A stretch of 64,000 bases of DNA from Heterodontus francisci (lineage: Eukaryota), in assembly GCF_036365525.1 (NCBI RefSeq), contig NC_090377.1:77485198-77549197 (forward strand), given 5' to 3'. The position numbers were made by a program, and so were the translations under genes. The notes under the pieces are model-generated. The model saw only the letters and a program-made list of their open reading frames with translations, was not told the origin of the DNA and did no database searches. Numbering within the stretch: the first letter of the stretch is position 1; every line of letters begins with the position of its first letter. This document shows positions 12,496 to 42,015 of the stretch, in pieces.

Positions 12496-15064
12496 AGTTA
12501 CTTTGGTTTTCGAAATCAATGTTTACCGACGAGAAGCGAAAGCCATGACCTGAGTTGCGAAATCCACGCGTGAAATGTTAAATTAAAGCATAACTGATCT
12601 GCAGCATGAATATCACAGAACATTTTGTATCGAGATCCCCCTATGGGAAATGACAATGTAGCAAAAGCATTCGAGATGCATAATTAATATTAAATAATGC
12701 ATAGACGGAGCCTATATCATTGCTGCTAAATGTTTTAATTAGTACTGTGTCCCCTATGCCATAGAATAAACAGTAACGCCCTGTCATATATATCAATATA
12801 TATTCCCTGTATTTTGTTGTTCTAGTTTATAACCTGCAATATTCATACCCTTGTAGTCAGCATTTACGCTAATTTCTGCACTTAGACAAAACATAACTGG
12901 ACAATAAATGCCGAAAACAACGGTAATGGAAAATGACAATAATATTGTTGCGATTTATGGGAAGACATAAACAATTAATGCTAATTGTGGTTAAGCAAAT
13001 GCATTAAAAAGTGATATTAAAAGTTGCACTGTGAAAATTATGTTTTCTTCCCAAAGGTCTTGTGCAACAACAGCTGCTTCTGTAAAGTACGGGAGACACC
13101 ATTTTAATGTTATTGTTTTCTAATAAAAGAATTAATACAAGTTGAAAGAGATCATAAATAGCGCGTTTAAACTGCTGGCATAGGCGATAAACATTTTTTC
13201 AATGTAGGAAATGATATGGCCACAAGTTAGCAAATATGTCTTATGGTTAGCAAACATAATAACCTTTCAGATCCTTGAAACAGCTCGTACGTTCGGACCG
13301 TTATCTCAAAAAATCAAAAAAACTTGTATCAATGATGATACGAAATAAAAATTTCTGCAAACAAGGATTTTTGAGATATTGATATTCATGTTAATTTCGA
13401 ACCTTGTTTATTAATATTTATCTGTAGTCCAACAATCAAAATGAATGAATGCTACGATGAATTAATTGTGAAGCTTTGCAGTATTCTTTTGAGTGGAGAT
13501 GTTAGATAAACAAAGATGTATGGATTCGGAATTAAATGCAGTCGCTCGAAATATCTGTCCTCTGGCGCCCTCATCTGTTTCCTTTGATTTTAACAGTCAT
13601 ATTACTTTCACAGTGGCTCCAAAATGTTAATTTCTCTGACAGCCAGCGCCTTTTGGAAATAATACTTAAGGAACCAAATTAAAAATAAAACACTTTGTCT
13701 ATATAAGTTAACTTTTGTATTGATTAGTTATTTTACATCGACACAATTTGAAAATACTGCTATAAGGGATAAATAAATGTATGAATTGATTTGTTCTTAA
13801 TAAAACTGACCTCTGGACTTTTGTATTGCTCTTTTGTGAGCGATAGCAGTTAGCTAGCTAACGAACAATTGACTTCTCCGTGCCGTTGTTAAACATAGAT
13901 GCCTTGAAATATTTATTATCAAGGGCAAGTGATGAGAGAAAAATAAAGTTTGAATTAAGCATTTTCATAAAATCTATCTCATAACCTGTAGTCTGTTGAA
14001 AATCCGTTTGAGCACTGAACGCAAAATCTCTTTATATCTGGTTGATATTGGTGGCAGATTGGAAGACTGCAGAAAATGTCAATTCTCGTTGATATTGGCA
14101 TAATACTGATTAATGAAACTGAGCAAAGTAGTGTTAAACACAATACAAAGAAGATATAGTGGCAAGGGCATTCGTTTGGAAATTGATTGCATGACTTCAA
14201 AATCCATGATTTCTGTCATTTATATTTTAATTACCTTTGGTACTGTGTGAAGGGAAAGTTTTAATAGGACAGAAAAGTCACAAAGCTGGTTTAAAAAGAT
14301 ACGTAGACAGATTACACCAGGTCTCTGTGCGCAGCAGTAGTTCACTTCTGCTAGCTCAAGGAAGGTTTACGGCAATAGACTAAATATTTGTTTGATCGTC
14401 TAGTGCAGGTACCGCGAGGTGTAATTCTAGAGCGTTAAGGGTTATAGCAGGCAATAAAAGGTCCTTAAATGCTTTTTGTCTGACGCAAGTTGCAATGTCA
14501 CTAAAGAGGTTTATTCCAGATTGCGGTTCACTGTTCTACTAAATTATTGCTTCATTCTGCTGCTTGGGTTTTAAAAAATGCGCGTTTACAAGTCTAGGTA
14601 ACCTGCAATCAAATATTGTAAATTGAATTCACCAGAGAAAAGTCATACAAAGAAAAACTGAAAGAATCAGCTGATACAAAACTCAACATTGACCTTGAGT
14701 CAACAGTACGTTAACTATAGTACAAATGTGTCATTCTGTAATGCAGCCGTGTCCTTGACGTTTGTTCACAAAGTTTAATTTGCAAAGAGTCCACACCGTG
14801 TTTTATTTACCAACTGTAGTAGAGTTACAGCAATAAAAAGATCAGGTAGTTTGGACCAGGGTGTAGTATGTGCACCTAATGGATAGCTTAGTTCCATTTC
14901 TGGGAGGTGGAATTTAACGTATTTGCTCAGTGCCTCTCACGCATATCATTCTCAACATTTGGAACAAAGAAGAATTTACGCTGACAAGTAGCGACAGAAA
15001 ACTATCAGGAATATTATATTTGTAAGTGGCTGGAGTGAACGCAATCATTTAGTGCAGTTGTAAG

Positions 15065-15593
15065 ATGGATTCGACTTCCCTGCAGTACAAACTGACGTTA
15101 GAGACATCTAGCGATAAAACAGGAATACTGCAAGATGAAGCGCGGCCGATGGAAATTGTACCAGTACTTTCCACTAACTTTGGAATTTCTTCTGCTATGT
15201 GTCCAACGCCTTTGAAAACGACTTCAAGTGGAAGGTGCCATGGATTGTACTCCGAAGGCATTTCAACTTGTGAATCGCATGGAAGCGCAGATCGGGAGAT
15301 AGTTGCTATGTCATTTGAGGCAGGTCAATTTCCTACAAACCAGCTTCAAAGTGACAGTCATATATCTTCGTTTACTAGCTACCGGCATAACCCCTGCACC
15401 AGAGGTGAATACCCTACCAACTCCTCATTTTATCAGCATTGGCCTTTAGAATATCCCCGGGCTGCACCTGTCCAGAACCAGACAGATTCCAACAATCTGG
15501 GCATGCCTGCCTTTAGCCATCCTCAGTACTGCGGAGCACCGTTTTCAGGAGGAGCACTCAACACTACAATGCCTGGTGTCCCAAGGCATTTAG
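15065..15593 (+). CDS. hoxd14: Hox paralogue group 14 protein, exon 1; spliced CDS 529+182+90=801 nt, 266 aa
   Basis: Long ORF MDSTSLQYKL...PRHL with donor TTAG|gtcggt in phase 1, matching the exon 2 acceptor. Choice of ATG and donor is less certain than for the homeobox exons. Confidence 0.8.
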
Positions 15594-16361
15594 GTCGGTC
15601 TAATATTCACACACCGCATGCCTGTCTCTCGCTGTTAGATACAGAGTTAATATTTGAGTTAAGGTTTTTAATGTGTTCAAAAGGCAAGATTAGTATTTCC
15701 GGGTCTTGCAGCAACACCCAGGTGATTGTATTTCATCGACTGTGGATGTTTTACCTTGACTGTGAATTATTGCGCATTTAATTTTTGCATGTAATTCTAG
15801 AAAAAACATGTCCACCAAACTTTAGGAGAGCTAAAACAGTTCGCTTTTCCTAAAGGTAGTTAGAATTCTTACGATGTATATTCAACACGAATATTTTACC
15901 TAAAGAAAGTGGTCGATGAATGTTAGTTCCTTTCCAGTCAATTGCTACATATTTATTTTTCATTGAAACATTTAGGAGATCCAATCAAAATTTACATTTC
16001 GTACACAAAATATGCAAATATAACAAAAGAAGAAGCATACCCACTTCAACTGAAAAATATTTACTTTGGAGAAAATGTATTACGTATTCAAATAAAAAGG
16101 GGAGTATGGGAACCCAAATTTTTAAATAAATACGAATACGTTTGATATTAAGTCTCGTCACTACTATGTTAATTTTTGAGGATAAATTAACTAACGTCAA
16201 TTAAAATAAGCGATTGTCAACGGCACTATTTGATCTTTAGTTATCATGGGGTTTGTGTATACAAGAAGATGATACGAGTACGAAAAATACACGCTGCTGT
16301 GAATTTCAGTTATTGTGGTCGAAGTTTCAAAACATATTGATGGATATGTGTATTTCTTTAG

Positions 16362-16543
16362 CATTGGGATTTACATCGCAATGGTCAACATCGCAGAACT
16401 CAATACACAGACAAAGAAAAAAACGAGTCCCTTACAGCAAACAGCAAATCGCTGAGCTGGAAATGGCTTATGAAAACAATCGATTCCTCACTCCCGAAGT
16501 CCGCTTAAACATTTCGTTCAAGTTAGGCTTAACAGAAAGGCAG
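16362..16543 (+). CDS. hoxd14: Hox14 exon 2 (linker and homeodomain residues 1-44)
   Basis: Acceptor tatttctttag|CA, strong donor CAG|gtaaga. Encodes [61 protein letters not shown]. Confidence 0.93.
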
Positions 16544-16712
16544 GTAAGAGAATCTCTTTCCAGTTTCTACAAAACAAAAGGTGAAGTCCCTGTCTGGCAA
16601 TGCTATCTCTCTTAATTGTCAACAGGTGGGCGCATTTATTCTCACAGAATATTAAACCAAGTCAGTTTATATTAGCCATCTTTTCTTCTCAAGTAGTCTG
16701 TCTATTTTTCAG

Positions 16713-16802
16713 GTGAAAATATGGTTCCAAAACCAGCGACAGAAAGAGAAAAAGCTTCTTCGTGTACAGCAATCGATAAATCCAAGTTGCCCCGGACTCT
16801 GA
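16713..16802 (+). CDS. hoxd14: Hox14 exon 3 (recognition helix and C-terminus)
   Basis: Acceptor tctatttttcag|GTG. Translates VKIWFQNQRQKEKKLLRVQQSINPSCPGL* (TGA 16800-16802). WFQNQR is the vertebrate Hox14 signature. Not shown in the ORF track. Confidence 0.94.
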   Translation: MKIWFQNQRQKEKKLLRVQQSINPSCPGL

Positions 16803-17260: not shown

Positions 17261-18760
17261 GTTGTTAATTTCAAATTTGATATAATTGTACAAAATAATT
17301 ACGTTATATTTTCATAGAATTGTCAACGTTGTGAAGGCCTTACTTCCATAACACTGAATTCGAAACATTTTTCTTACCTTTTTCCCAAAAACTGATTATT
17401 TCACAGGCTTTAGTCAACCCGAATGCAATGGGAAGATGCCAACATTTATTCGTTGGATACTACAATGTGCTGATGTAACGCACTAAAACTGCAACACTAC
17501 AAAATAAAATCTATGACTACATTTAGATTGTAAAATACAATGAATTACCTAGACTATTTCCTCAATGGTTCATTGTGCATTTGCTGTTCTCTTCGTGTAC
17601 GCAATTTTAAATGTTAAACAGTTCCCCGTCGATTTGCCGATAACCGCACACTGGTTTCCTAAAAGAAAGGATATTTTACACTTGAACTGATGTTTCGTTG
17701 CGGGGGTCACGGAAGTCGGCAATGCTGTGATTCTGCTATGGATTATTTAGATCAAAAGAATGAACCAGTTCTTGAAAGTTTCGTGTGTAATAAGTTATAA
17801 TGGAACCGAATGCATGGTTTTATTGTAGAGGTAACTGGAACATTGGTCAGCTGAACCAGCCCATAATGTTCAAGTGCAATATATTAATATCTGAGGATCT
17901 CATCTGGGTGTAATATTTGCTTATATGTGATTTCCCTATTATTCCTCTATATTTTTCCTTTATTTACGTGTTACAATGGCAATATTTTCATTGTTGCTTC
18001 AGAGTCAGAATCAGCTCGAGGGCTTGAAGCGTAAAATTAAGAAGGAAATAAACTTGCTTCCAGTTGACTCCAAATTCATTGGCACCCATTTGCTACTGTA
18101 GTGATGATTTTGTTTTGTGGTAAAAGGCAAATATCAGAAGTGCGTTTCTGCACCTCAGAGGCGCAAATCGAAGTCCCGCCTTCTATCCGTCGCCAATATA
18201 AAGAACTAAAAGCAAAAGACACAGGTGGCAAAAAAATAACATAGCCATTACGAGCAGTCCTTCAGATTCTTCCACTACATGGGATAAAACCACGTTGCCA
18301 TCATATGCCTGCATAGAGATTCACCAATGATCGGGGAAGTTGCAAGGGCCAAACATATTTTGAGCGATTGTTGTACGTCTGTCAAAATTTCTTAACTACA
18401 ATACGTAAGTTGGACAAGAGTCTGATATTAATTTCAAACACCACATTACGATATCTGTTGTACATAACCAAAGAAATGTCTTAAAGGTATAGCAATCTTC
18501 ATAGCAATCAGACGAAAATTGTTGTAATTAGTTATTTGCAATTGAAATCAGTTGAATCAATATCTCAGATGCTACAGTTTTCAAGCACATGACTGAAGAT
18601 TTAAAAAACTGGCAAATATTGTATTTGATTTTTTAAAACTTGCATTTATGTAGTGCTTTATCACTCCCAAAAGGATCTTCACGACCATCGAATTCAGTTT
18701 TGAAATGAAATCATTTTTATGTAGGCGACTAGCAGCTACTTTGGGAATAGCAATATCCAA

Positions 18761-18903
18761 CAAACAGCAAACGAATGAATGATCAGATAATCTATATTCG
18801 CAGGTATTGGTTGAGGGAGGAATGATGGCCAGGACAGCAAGAGAACGACTTGCTTTCTTCGAATACTGCCACTGATTTTTTTTTTTGTTTTAAGTCCACC
18901 TGA
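18761..18903 (-). mobile_element. Degenerate DeuSINE fragment (SacSINE1/AmnSINE1-like Deu domain)
   Basis: caaacagcaa...atgatcagataatct...tggttgagggaggaatgatggccaggaca...gagaac...ttcttcgaatactgcca...gtccacctga follows the reverse complement of the Deu domain as I recall it. No database search was run. Confidence 0.65.
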
Positions 18904-19595
18904 TTATAATCCTTTGTATGTCCACTGTTGAAACAGAAAACGTTAAGACTTATATTCTTTAAGAACATATGAATATAATCAGCATGTTAAGCAATCAGGC
19001 ACAATAATTACTGTAGAACGACCCTTACAGACATATATTGAAGAACTAACAATTAAAAATATATCTTAAGAAATTTACATCTGTGCTCACTTCCCGTCAA
19101 CTTTTTCATTATAGATGCCTATGTCCACCTTTATAATAGAAACTTCCAATGCAAACTTGCCGTCCAGGAATTAGACCCTCCAGCCGGTTGTGCAGGTAAG
19201 CGCCACCACTGGTGGGAAGTGGTAATCGCAGCGTGACAAGTTTGCATATTCAGTTTCATTATCAATGAGGAGATAGGCATTTTAAAATGTGTTACTTTAA
19301 AACAAAGACTGAATTAGTTCTCCACGCCTTGTTCTTATGATCCACTGCTCTTTAATACCGTTTCATTTGTTCCTGACTCCTGCTGTACAACACCAAGGGC
19401 GATAGGCGAGTAAGGTAGTGAATATATTGGTGCCAAATTTTATTCATGAACATTGCAGATCGCAGTTTCAGTAGTGAAAGATTTAACAGATACAAAGGCC
19501 TATAACATGTTGTTAACCTTATTTGCGTACTCGAATAACTATTTAAACAGTAAGGGACAATAATGGCATGTTGTCCAAACAATTGGGATTCGAGG

Positions 19596-19677
19596 TAAAA
19601 ACAAGAAATGCTGGAACCACTCAGCAGGTCTGGCAGCATCTGTGGAAAGAGAAGCAGAGTTAACGTTTCGGGTCAGT
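19596..19677 (-). mobile_element. Penelope-like terminal repeat fragment, inverted copy (left arm)
   Basis: 82 nt, the reverse complement of 19745-19826 with 5 mismatches by manual comparison. Confidence 0.8.
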
Positions 19678-19712
19678 AGTTCATTTTACATACCAAGCAA
19701 TCGAATTTATTT

Positions 19713-19861
19713 TGTTCTGTATTATTGAGTTCTGAAGAAGGGTCACTGACCTGAAACGTTAACTCTGCTTCTCTCTCGACAGATGCTGCCAGACCTGCTG
19801 AGTATTTCCAGCATTTCTTGTTTTTATTTCAGATTTCCAGCATCCACAGTATTTTGCTTTT
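19713..19861 (+). mobile_element. Penelope-like terminal repeat fragment (right copy) flanked by a 14-bp direct repeat
   Basis: Elasmobranch-type repeat ...gaaacgttaactctgcttctctc...agatgctgccagacctgctgagtatttccagcatttcttgtttttatttcagatttccagcatc..., flanked by AATCGAATTTATTT at 19699-19712 and 19862-19875. Penelope assignment is inferred from the hammerhead motif. Confidence 0.75.
19727..19765 (+). ncRNA. Minimal type I hammerhead ribozyme motif
   Basis: GAGUU (stem I), CUGAAGA+A (core), GGGUC acu GACCU (stem II), GAAA, CGUU, AACUC (stem I). Stem III is reduced to palindromic ACGU. Predicted cleavage after GUU at 19760. Confidence 0.7.
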
Positions 19862-24650: not shown

Positions 24651-24676
24651 GTACTTAGTTTGCAGTGGGTCGTGAT

Positions 24677-25364
24677 ATGACAGCTTCTTTTCTTTCAGCC
24701 CCTTGGAGGACTGATACAATCAGGTACCTAGACAACAAAAACAACATATCTAACTCGGAGATGGAAGGACTGGGAGGGAACGTCCCTTCAAATCAATGCA
24801 GGAATTTTCTGTCTCCCTCTGCATTTGGAGCTCATCACAACTCTTTATCCTCGGGTCCTGCTTACACCGTCGGAGATCGAACGCATTCTGTCATTTCTGA
24901 ATCTGCTAAGCAATGCAGCCCATGCCCTGCTCCGACAAGCCCTCCAAACCCAGCGATCAGTTACGGCTATCATTTTGGAAGCAGCTATTACAGTTGTCGA
25001 AATGTTGGCATTCAACAAACTGGACTGAAATCTGGTGCTCATGCATCTCTAGCCGGTTATCCAGTGGACAAATACATGGACGTTTCGAGTTTGACTAATA
25101 CTCCTGTCCCCACTGACGAGGTGTCAGCCAGGGCGAAAGAATTTGCTTTTTATCAGAGCTACCCTAATCCATACCAACGGGTCTCTGGTTATTTGGACGT
25201 CCCAGTAGTCCCTACAATAAGCGGCCACGGAGAGCCAAGGCATGAAGCCTTAATATCCATGGAGGGCTATCAGCCTTGGACATTTGCTAATAGCTGGAAC
25301 GGTCAAGTGTATTGTCCTAAAGATCAGACACAAACTCCACATTTTTGGAAATCGCCTCTTTCAG
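24677..25364 (+). CDS. hoxd13: Homeobox D13 exon 1; spliced CDS 688+251=939 nt, 312 aa (alternative ATG at 24761)
   Basis: Hox13 motifs [60 protein letters not shown]. Donor TCAG|gtatca, phase 1. Confidence 0.95.
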
Positions 25365-25706
25365 GTATCATGAAATCATTTTTACTGAAAAACGGTACGA
25401 TTACTTTAAATGTAAAGTAAATAAATTAAATCCACGTTCCTTTGGTTTAGTACTGTCAGGCATTCTTTAGTCTTTTAATTTACTATATTTCAAACGAATA
25501 ATATGTGGAACACAGAATAACCATGTATTAGAATTAATGTGCGGAAATGTTGGATTAATCGTATGCCTAATTGTCTCAAATGATTCACTAAAATTATGTT
25601 TAAAAAGCCAGACGAATGGGTTGTCAATTTTCTTTATATTTTTAACACCCTTTGAACTGCTGCTACTTGAAGTTTACGTTCTTATAATTTGCATTTTCCC
25701 CCTCAG

Positions 25707-25957
25707 GAGATGTGATGCACAATCAGACTGATATAAACATTTACAGACGAGGGAGGAAGAAAAGGGTTCCTTATACGAAAACCCAGCTTAAAGAACTCGA
25801 GCGAGAATACGCCACAAACAAATTTATAACCAAGGAAAAAAGACGAAGGATATCAACAGCCACCAACCTTACCGAAAGACAAGTCACCATCTGGTTTCAG
25901 AATAGAAGAGTCAAGGAGAAAAAAGTGGTTTCCAAAGTCAAAGAAAATATACCTTGA
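25707..25957 (+). CDS. hoxd13: Homeobox D13 exon 2 (homeodomain)
   Basis: Acceptor ttttccccctcag|[66 protein letters not shown]. Confidence 0.97.
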
Positions 25958-28617
25958 TATTGCAGACAACAGTAACCAATATTGGCGCATTGCAAATTAT
26001 ATGTGATGGACTTCCTTTTAGAAAAGGAAACTAAATGAATGTGGGAGGAGTTCAAGCCACATCTTCGGATTTACAGAGAAAATCTTACAATGACCATTTC
26101 CACGCAATGTTGTGCAAAATTTTGCTAAAATATTTGATGTGACTTCATCACCACATTCAAAGAAATGAGGTACTCTTAAGAGAGTGAACAATTCCACATT
26201 CACACACTTGTATTCTGTTACCGTGCTGGATTATTTTCACGTGTGACATTGCAAATATTGCTGCAAAGTAATGCTTAGTTCATTCTTAATTAAATTGTTC
26301 GTGGGTTCAGCTGGAGGTTTTGCAATACGCAGGAAAAATGGCGACTACAACTGATAACACATTCAAAGCCAAAAATTGACATTAAGTAAAACGTATTTAT
26401 AACTTTCTTAATGCAAAGCGATTTTTATTTAACATTTAAGTTTTTAGTCATGCTTTGCAAGAGGTACCATGGCTGCATTGCGAATGGGTTCTAATGCTAA
26501 TCATATATACTAGCAACAAAATCCATTCTGTTGTGAATGATTGAAAATATAATGCTTAAGTGCTATTTTACGTCAGTGCCAGTTAGAAATTATTTGCAAG
26601 TGGGATAGTTACAGATTAACTGCGGTACAATCCCATAAGATATTTTATCATATTAATCGGCAGCGAATTTACAATCATTTTCAAAATAAATTATTTAGTG
26701 TATATACCGAAAGGACCTTCTGTTTACTCACTCCAGAAAGTTCTACAATAAAATGTTGTCCTAAGCAAATGTAAACATTAAACATAAATTTCAGTCTCAA
26801 GTGAAATGCCTGTCAAATTTAAAATGTCCTTAAAAGTTATGAGTTAAAATATGAAAATCTATGTTTCTGCATTTTGAATCTTTTGTTCATTTAAAACTGT
26901 TATTTTCAAAACAAATGCTAATATATTTGAAAGTCCCATGGTCGTTTTGAATGCGGTGCCTTTAATTGAAATATTTACAGCTGTTTTCTAATTAGTAAGT
27001 TGTTGTGCTGTATACTTAAATTGCTTCATTATTGTAATCATGATAACTATACGACTAAAATAGTGGGGAAGTTTGGCATTATTTCTATATTTTATGTACA
27101 TTTTAACGCAAGCATTTGCTCATTTTTGTCCATCATTTCTCTGCCCAGGATGAGTTAAATGTGAACTCGGGTGGTTTTCTTACTTTGATTTATGCCGTGT
27201 AAAATATTAAAACAAATCACACTTTAACTGCCTCCAAGTTTTATATTTCTTGTAAATGAATTAAATATATTTTGTTTTGTCACATCGCCACATTCTATCT
27301 TAAGCTGTATAGCATTTACACGAATGCGTCTCTAATTTACGCACGTACATAATTCGCCTTAGTGTTAGGGTATTTTGGGGCGAAAGTACAAACTCTAAAC
27401 ACCATAATAATAAATAAGCATTACGGATTTAATAAACTGCAAGAAGCTGTAAATGTTCGTCTTAAAATAAATTATTTTATTAAAAAAAAGAACGTATTGA
27501 TCCAGTATTAACTTGCTGCGCATTTTGTAAATATATATTAAACTATTTGAAGGACACATGGTTTCTAAGTTGTTGCGCTTTACAACAAATTATGAGCAAG
27601 CCAAATTACACACCGAAAATTGATCATGCAATGAGTAAAATTCCAAACAGTGTCGAAGCCACAAGAATACAAACATCTGATTTTGAAAACGTCTTGCCAG
27701 GATTGATGCCAGATCGATGCCATTACCTCACTTTCTCTTGTACAGGTTCAACCATTATAGGATTGAGTTAATTTCACATAACTATTCCAACTTTTTGTAA
27801 GGTTTGCCACAAAGAGTTACTAGTAGGTAAGTAAACTACTTGGCACACAGTACCAGTTAATTATCAGAAGCAAGTAATTTGAAGAGATGCACGATAAAAT
27901 ATGTCCTATAAAACGTCTTTTCGATTATTAAATACAATTAAACGTGTAAACAATCGATCTAATTCCTTTTTATCTTAAACTTAAATTGAGTCATTTAGTG
28001 GGCTACCCTGTAATCTTCGCACAGATGTTTAAAGTAAACAGCTATTGTACTATCCCAGTCGGCGACGGTGCGTAAATAAAATAAAACAAGATAATATGGT
28101 TAACATGTTCATAACAGAATGAATGTAGCCTGGATTTGTAATGCCTTTTTAATGGAAAATATTGCAGGGATAAGGTAGTTGGGGAGAGAAATCAGTTCCT
28201 AATTTTTTAAATAGAAATATTAAGTGATGAAGTTTAGAATTAAGCTAAGTGAGATTGACTGCATTTATATGAGCATGAACTTAGTAGGTGATAATGCTCC
28301 TGACCCTGCCATCTTTATTTACCAGCTGCTAACACTTTCTAACATATTCCTGTGCATTGGGATAAATTCTGTTCGTCAGCCTCAGAAGAAAATTGGAAAG
28401 AATTATGATATATTAAGTTAAATTAAAACTTCATATTTAACGACTTTCATTAAATTTGCAGGAGCTCCGTGATATTAAGATACATTTTTGGAAGGATATT
28501 AAGCGCTCTGACGTCAAATTTCTATTTACCATTGACCTTGACTATCGTTATAGTCTTTGACCTTGACTTTATTTAGCATCATGAATAATAAGGATTGCCC
28601 TGATCGCAGAGCTAGTT

Positions 28618-40923: not shown

Positions 40924-41156
40924 CTGCTCTGCGATGCAGAAAGAAAAGATGTCCTTATACCAAATATCAAATCCGGGAACTTGAACGAGAATTTTTCTTC
41001 AATGTCTACATAAACAAAGAAAAACGTTTGCAGTTGTCGAGAATGTTGAACCTCACCGACCGACAAGTGAAAATTTGGTTCCAGAATCGAAGAATGAAAG
41101 AAAAGAAACTTAGCAGAGACCGTCTGCACTTTTTTACTGGCAACCCTTTATTGTGA
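40924..41156 (+). CDS. hoxd11: Homeobox D11 exon 2 (homeodomain)
   Basis: Acceptor tttccaccag|CT. Hand translation [76 protein letters not shown]. Absent from the ORF track. Confidence 0.97.
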
Positions 41157-41936
41157 CTATGATATAACTTTGCTGGATTCTCTTCGACCAAATCCGCATT
41201 GCCTTAGTCAGTATTTATTTACAGAAGGAGTAACTGCAAGTATGAGAGAACTGTTTTGTTGTTCTTATGTGGAAACCAGACAGTCCTTATTAAATCGACG
41301 TAGAATCGGATTTGAGGTGACACGTTTATGCAGGAAACAGGGCCGTAATGTTTATTAGGGAACATTCTTACCTCAACATTTGTGTTATTCGGTTCCAACG
41401 GAAGAGGCTTGATGCTGCGGGATATTCAAGGCAAAAAAAAAGTATGCTCATTTTAAACAATAAATCGGGGTAGCAGAGAAATGGAAACAACGGTTCGTTC
41501 ACAGCGACAGGTCAATCAGATAATATTGTACTTTCTATTTTTGTGTTTAGTCATTGCATAGACAGACTAACCATAATTGCTCAAGTTGTCTGTATTCCCA
41601 TGAAAAGAAAAAATGCATATTTATTATTTTACTTTTTACATTGTATTTCATCAGTTAACTAAAACATACCGTAGCTAGAGATGTAATGCTAATAATTCTG
41701 TTTTAAGGTTATAAACTAGTTGACATTTCATGGTAAATGCATGTATTAGAATGTGTTTTTGTCTCAAATGAATAAAAGCCTTTTATGATATCTTATAAAT
41801 AAAGCTTTTTTTTAAAAAAAAACAGACTATTTGAGTATACTTAAGCAGACCTGATACAGAATGTCACCATTCGCTTCAAAAGATACAAATATTTTTCAGC
41901 TCTGAAATACAGTGCAAACATTGCAATTTAATGTAT

Positions 41937-42015
41937 AAAAGGCAAAGTAATGAGGATGTTGGAAATCTGAAATATAACAGATGCTGCCCGATCTGCTGAG
42001 TATCTCCAGCATTTC
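41937..42015. mobile_element. Second, rearranged relic of the same Penelope-like repeat
   Basis: 41937-41976 resembles the reverse complement of the tail at 19822-19861; 41977-42015 resembles 19779-19817 in forward orientation. Confidence 0.75.

Follow-up and report, generated by a model that had tools for sequence, protein, structure and literature searches.

The hammerhead motif at 19727-19765 is not a Hox element but, to judge from its sequence and that of its relatives, the 5' portion of a short copy derived from a Neptune-type Penelope-like retroelement (PLE). The copy lies in a 64-kb window (the whole stretch of DNA analysed here, 64,000 nucleotides), inserted between two genes that we take to be HoxD14 and HoxD13. 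It is very probably an inert passenger there, its inactivity being judged from predicted folding, family comparison and position.

The earlier note had read a minimal hammerhead ribozyme at these coordinates, with a cut at 19760/19761. Re-reading the sequence and matching it to a descriptor (core boxes plus stems) returned the same letters, the same positions and the same predicted cut, with the core boxes CUGANGA, GAAA and UH in type I order. The parts of the motif are:

19727..19765, plus strand: minimal hammerhead motif with a CUGA core, an extra A after A9, a G10.1.U11.1 wobble and a loopless ACGU stem III
19727-19731 and 19761-19765: 5' and 3' strands of stem I
19732-19738: core box CUGAAGA
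19739: extra A, unpaired, between A9 and 10.1
19740-19744 and 19748-19752: stem II, with a 3-nt loop
19753-19756: GAAA box
19757-19760: C-G-U-U

The descriptor matched once in the window, as compared with 0.06 (loose) or 0.01 (strict) matches per shuffled 64-kb window (100 shuffles); the motif is beyond chance. Stem III was correctly described as palindromic and loopless: its C-G at 19757-19758 sits inside ACGU, and there is no helix III loop. Folded alone, the 39-mer formed stems I and II at -8.8 kcal/mol, an energy no better than that of shuffled sequences (47 of 200 were equally good). The covariance-model search that had been suggested yielded no Rfam hammerhead family at E<=10, over either 4001 nt or 101 nt around the motif, and the scans returned microRNA-hairpin and chance matches only. 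Such an outcome would be expected, since the motif has no helix III.

Five base pairs had been proposed for stem I. All five do pair in the HoxD copy, but helix I is 4 bp across the family, and of 41 distinct family copies only 6 form the outer (fifth) pair, the first base of the element itself being A 19728. The parent element has C, not G, at the position of 19727; by this sequence comparison G 19727 is a non-element base and the fifth pair of the HoxD copy is present by chance. Helix II was paired in 94.6% over the 41 copies. In the HoxD copy both the canonical CUGA core and the stem III CpG are intact, and the pair at 10.1-11.1 is G.U rather than the G10.1-C11.1 typical of PLE minimal hammerheads, a pair that is nevertheless outside the published descriptor (PMC4209133). 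Covariation of the stems across genomic copies, the other check that had been proposed, was weak: it was limited to the pair 10.1-11.1 (GU in 17 copies, AU in 12, GC in 9, unpaired in 3), whose score was equalled in 11 of 500 shuffles, and two-sided stem changes over the 41 copies were not above shuffles (350 of 500).

The exact 39-mer occurred 297 times genome-wide, and its reversed control not once. A DNA search with the stub returned 40 scored copies at 95-99% identity besides the window's own, and 77 regions of 10 kb held 43 matches, or about 56 per Mb and about 3.4e5 pieces genome-wide, a rough estimate in that the regions were taken at round coordinates on large contigs and paired arms were counted twice. 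Longer copies extended upstream into a GIY-YIG frame. A protein search gave 17,734 candidates; among the 150 scored, many had full open frames (924 aa), and the family is therefore young. The attribution of the motif to PLEs was borne out in the same genome by the parent element itself, a tandem array of at least 4 intact units with a period of 3301 bp (G000:C23:66094958-66105295). Each unit contains one hammerhead, 168 nt (from C3) before the ATG of a 916-aa ORF, such that the motif stands at both ends of intact ORFs. The ORF matched RVT_1 at E 6e-6 and GIY-YIG at E 0.0018, in each case short of the Pfam gathering score but with an order and motifs that fit, and a CX2-5CxxC linker was seen in the parent translation between reverse transcriptase (RT) and endonuclease. 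That linker, as defined in PMC8557442, is common to Neptune and Nematis elements. By layout and linker motif rather than by a tree, the parent appears to be a Neptune-type EN+ PLE, arranged with tandem or inverted pLTRs and an optional tail.

Two main types made up the 129 copies (of 166) that covered all sites, a sample biased by the queries: CUGA with G.U at 10.1-11.1 (58 of 71) and CCGA with G-C (46 of 51). Hammerheads beside intact 924-aa frames read CCGA for CUGA in 20 of 20 matches, at 10 of 12 loci fetched, the 12 loci having been chosen for their similarity to a single protein query. CCGA hammerheads of viroid-like RNAs are described as cleaving in vitro (bioRxiv 10.64898/2026.09.16.752053), and changes in CUGA are described as giving low activity in a mutational scan (PMC9901934). 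CpG decay was considered as the origin of the CUGA and G.U letters and rejected, the opposite-strand product being nearly absent (1 of 71); the stem III CpG, by contrast, decays both ways (22 T and 14 A of about 150). In older copies the core positions differed at 6 of 281 sites as compared with 242 of 2266 in the tail, and in young copies the core was no less divergent (6 of 126 against 63 of 1045). The lower core divergence of older copies fits selection on source elements, with alignment bias uncontrolled.

At the HoxD site the insertion could be delimited on both sides:

19699..19712, plus strand: left copy of a 14-bp target-site duplication
19713..19726, plus strand: 14-nt filler between duplication and stub, not shared with the parent's upstream sequence
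19728..19861, plus strand: PLE stub of about 135 bp, CUGA/G.U subfamily, starting with the opening base of stem I and reaching the distal 3' end of the element, at about +130 from C3
19862..19875, plus strand: right copy of the 14-bp target-site duplication
19596..19677, minus strand: inverted PLE fragment, +13 to +94 from C3, CCGA/G-C subfamily, starting in loop II and without the first core box

The motif is the first 38 nt of the stub plus the G at 19727. Over 92 nt the stub showed 3 differences from the majority of its own subfamily and 6 from the other.

Fifty bp upstream, in opposite orientation, lies the inverted fragment, which belongs to the younger subfamily (1 difference from its own majority, 5 from the other). 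It does read GACCC, as the earlier note had observed; it is, however, a member of the subfamily with the CCGA core and not a better-preserved twin of the stub. Based on these letters, the fragment is likely a separate insertion, the order of the two being reconstructed, since the 14-bp duplication frames the stub alone. The two copies could instead be the arms of one insertion event: their 3' ends, at +94 and +130, agree with those of pairs produced elsewhere by a single event (in 5 of 6 inspected, one arm stops near +95, its partner near +132, and a common duplication encloses both), and the spacer between them opens with the element's first five bases. We consider this unlikely, as the subfamily letters differ at five sites and the duplication surrounds the right copy but not the pair. 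Elsewhere in the genome, head-to-head pairs with arms ending near +95 and +132 were framed by one duplication of 13-15 bp and joined via stem I bases; such pairs fit two RT start sites used on both target strands.

Under the preferred reading of two insertions, the copies together still form a hairpin with arms of 82 nt that are 94% complementary (19596-19677 with 19745-19826), at -160 kcal/mol (z -20), a value equalled by 0 of 200 shuffles. It is conceivable, on the strength of that stability, that the inverted pair matters as an 82-bp double-stranded hairpin (a substrate for editing, small RNAs or termination, or a DNA cruciform) and not as a ribozyme; we regard this as very unlikely, head-to-head arms being a routine outcome of PLE insertion, both in PMC8557442 and at the pairs found elsewhere in this genome.

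The surroundings are those of a HoxD-type cluster: a minus-strand Evx-like gene is accompanied by a gene with a split homeobox (15.05-16.80 kb) and, from 25.9 kb on, by five homeoboxes of the plus strand. The names given to Hox genes in the window are our assumption, from gene order. The genes on either side of the insertion are:

15053..16802, plus strand: upstream Hox gene with a split homeobox, examined by homeodomain (E 2.7e-10) and exon frames, presumably HoxD14, by position
24659..25960, plus strand: downstream Hox13-group gene (HoxA13_N E 2.4e-35), presumably HoxD13, the paralogue letter being assumed

The motif lies on the Hox sense strand between these two genes, as first described; the 14th-group gene has its stop about 2.9 kb upstream of it, and the first HoxD13 exon follows 4.9 kb downstream. 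By match to a sample of repeats, the window had a repeat share of 0.6%, as compared with 47% in 20 arbitrary regions. Both PLE copies thus sit where repeats are otherwise excluded, and one genome cannot separate tolerance from usefulness; contigs of three other organisms carried the repeat family, none of them spanning the site, and an orthologous empty site was not obtained. Two further weak repeat remnants were observed at 18740-18846 and about 19120-19250. The PLE pair and these remnants all fall in the HoxD14-HoxD13 spacer, the sole part of the window that matched the repeat sample at E<=1e-8. An old, decayed palindrome related to the PLE tail, lacking the hammerhead core, was also seen at 41935-42015, about 0.8 kb after the homeobox at 41073.

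The most consequential suggestion in the earlier note was that the ribozyme could cut Hox read-through transcripts. If true, the Hox cluster of a vertebrate would contain a ribozyme acting as an insulator; the evidence points against it. Predicted fold probabilities for stems I and II were 0.74 for the motif alone, 6e-15 when the motif had just been transcribed after the inverted arm, and 1e-21 in the full hairpin, a suppression of 20-30 kcal/mol, by energies that leave out proteins, tertiary contacts and kinetics. In Hox-sense read-through RNA the inverted arm would be transcribed first; it is predicted to occupy stem II, stem III and the 3' strand of stem I by base pairing and thereby to keep the ribozyme from folding. 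RNA beginning between the two copies would escape the hairpin, with a fold probability of 0.0075-0.65 depending on its 3' extent. A dimeric hammerhead geometry scored -14.3 kcal/mol, worse than two monomers (-17.6), and no second same-strand copy of the motif was found in the 64-kb window; the stub would also lack the dimer partner or the element protein that such motifs need in vitro. The note's own caveat, that a single copy sequestered in a long hairpin may be inactive, was well placed, given the 82-nt arms, the predicted suppression and the missing same-strand partner. Read-through RNA would pass three AATAAA sites after the HoxD14 stop before reaching the motif, and the same 39 letters recur at 297 places in the genome. 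On this modelling the ribozyme likely does not act on Hox read-through RNA.

It might still be argued that the insertion was kept because the ribozyme cuts HoxD14-to-HoxD13 read-through with the aid of a protein or of a trans partner from other transcribed copies. The sense orientation, the canonical CUGA core, the 5-bp stem I and the site in a repeat-poor cluster would suit this idea, as would the family sequence in presumed RNA contigs of the same sample, through which trans partners may exist, and the protein-assisted cleavage of another PLE (PMC11167929). We judge it extremely unlikely against the predicted sequestration of 20-30 kcal/mol, the poorer score of the dimer geometry, the upstream AATAAA sites and the character of the copy itself, which is young, undistinguished and 98-99% like dispersed copies; in addition, we found no paper joining self-cleaving hammerhead ribozymes to Hox clusters. 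In presumed RNA runs, the share of spacer words present was 0.08-0.11, a word match that speaks neither for nor against transcription of the spacer. The preferred reading remains that of a passenger: it shows only that young elements can settle in the HoxD14-HoxD13 spacer of a cluster otherwise free of repeats, and as a Hox feature the insertion is most likely without importance.

Perhaps of wider use is what the ends of the copies reveal about the RNA from which they were made. Among 42 tabulated copies from an arbitrary sample (one further copy was dropped at a region edge), 12 began at -6..-3 from C3, 11 extended further upstream, and 19 began at or after C3, scattered; 12 of the 33 ends between -54 and +62 fell at -6..-3 (p 5e-10). 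Genome-wide, breaks at -4, where stem I begins, numbered 5368, as compared with 484 at the cut site and 432 at a control position 2 nt beyond it, the patterns used being of differing sequence and the ratio of about 11 between -4 and the cut site therefore approximate. From this ratio we infer that the template RNA had probably not been cut and that stem I probably opened it, a start read from the ends of DNA copies. A cleavage footprint was sought and rejected: breaks at the cut site were not in significant excess over the control genome-wide (p 0.16), and of 12 loci broken there, 6 were head-to-head arms that overlap within stem I, 3 were otherwise whole motifs with a small deletion, 2 were junctions of other kinds and at most 1 was a plain start. 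Some of the paired arms may have come from cut RNA.

In the intact unit, TATAAT stands at -33..-28 and TCAGTT at -6..-1. Copies repeating their first 8 nt at the 5' end numbered 356 genome-wide, as compared with about 46 expected; these repeats look as if the RT had re-annealed at a physical RNA end, which their number fits. The 8-nt direct repeat was sometimes doubled, and long upstream element sequence was present in 0 of 12 inspected copies. One stub had, in the filler at its 5' junction, two telomere-type CCCTAA units (upstream of a match at about 1460-1500 of its own locus).

The ends at -4 could alternatively mark a 3' splice site (CAG/UU), with stubs derived from spliced or 3'-splice-site-cleaved RNA, as in D. 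virilis Penelope. The parent does have a pyrimidine tract and a CAG immediately ahead of the UU in stem I, and the D. virilis Penelope intron ends at helix I (PMC4209133, PMC2377424). Still, 40 of 60 loci were without long upstream element sequence and shared no visible upstream exon, most stubs retain the AG or G that would be intron, no GT..AG joint ended there among 15 of 24 joints listed (four presumed RNA runs, one sample), and the 8-nt repeats fit a physical RNA end at the A; splicing is quite improbable as the source of these ends. Two related proposals were set aside. A distinct 'TGAG' subfamily or spliced exon was mostly query bias and was gone in flank-independent samples. A cap-derived G as the source of the fifth pair was not borne out by the preceding bases of 25 plain short copies (G 10, A 8, T 7), several G in paired copies coming from the inverted arm; by hand count, the base before the start in the first 100 CCGA matches listed was G in 45 and A in 26 (p 7e-4).

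Returning to an unspliced template, the reconstructed order of events would be as follows: the parent RNA would start at the A of stem I, below the TATA-like box and on an initiator-like site; the element RT, primed on nicked target DNA, would begin in the U-rich tail some 130 nt further down; and from there it would copy the uncut RNA as far as the 5' end, so that the stub left behind has no promoter. We tentatively propose, at somewhat less than even confidence, that the stubs preserve the PLE template in fossil form, in which RNA begins at stem I through TATA and initiator, is copied uncut, and gains 8-nt repeats as a telomerase-like RT slips back. With one weakening change per common subfamily (CCGA in ORF-intact copies; G.U or A-U at 10.1-11.1 in CUGA copies), the hammerhead would be a damped, protein-gated structure of the mRNA 5' end and not a cutter that frees tandem units.

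Much of the setting is already published. Minimal hammerheads in the pLTRs of metazoan PLEs, mostly as single dispersed copies with some opposite-strand pairs 100-700 bp apart, were described by Cervera and De la Pena (2014, PMC4209133), and the shark motif resembles theirs in its type I topology, core boxes, unpaired base between A9 and 10.1, helix I of 4-5 bp, palindromic 15.2-16.2 without helix III, pLTR location and dispersal. It departs from them in its 5-bp helix II, in G.U for the usual G10.1-C11.1, and in CCGA in ORF-intact copies. A single S. mansoni minimal hammerhead showed no cleavage and dimers cleaved little, according to the same paper. Promoters have been described elsewhere in the group, with TATA and initiator-like sites in a rotifer pLTR (PMC3846280) and a TATA-less promoter with an intron in D. 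virilis Penelope (PMC2377424). We found no paper on the shark family, which the supplements of PMC4209133 or of the retrozyme preprint considered next may list; Hox repeats are treated, for HoxC, in bioRxiv 10.1101/2025.06.08.657570.

Non-LTR retrozymes (Li, Clavereau, Pollet 2026, bioRxiv 10.64898/2026.07.22.740005) include vertebrate families, one of them chondrichthyan. Like them, the shark stub is non-autonomous, hammerhead-bearing, short and pLTR-related; unlike them, it is a single same-strand copy outside any tandem array, comes directly from an autonomous PLE and is flanked by a target-site duplication. Neptune-clade EN+ PLEs (Craig et al. 2021, PMC8557442) share with the shark element a single ORF of RT and C-terminal GIY-YIG, the CX2-5CxxC linker, partial tandems, inverted 5'-truncated copies and a tail, whereas the window holds non-coding stubs only, and the clade placement is by linker motif, not by tree.

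The closest functional parallel is the Poseidon PLE of Anolis carolinensis (PAc; Frangieh et al. 2024, PMC11167929), whose hammerhead is reported to cleave only with protein, is unnecessary for insertion in vitro, and leaves uncut RNA as the main template. PAc and the shark PLE have in common tandem units, a hammerhead near the ORF start, uncut RNA as template and no ends at the cut site, and the two RT start sites of PAc, which give an optional tail of 30-40 nt, have a shark counterpart in the ends at about +95 and +132. They differ in that the PAc ORF starts inside stem II and the RT start sites lie within that ORF, whereas the shark ORF starts 168 nt after C3, and in the Cys linker of Neptune and Nematis elements carried by the shark protein. 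The genome-wide count of copy ends bears on what PLE hammerheads do, and agrees with this one in vitro study.
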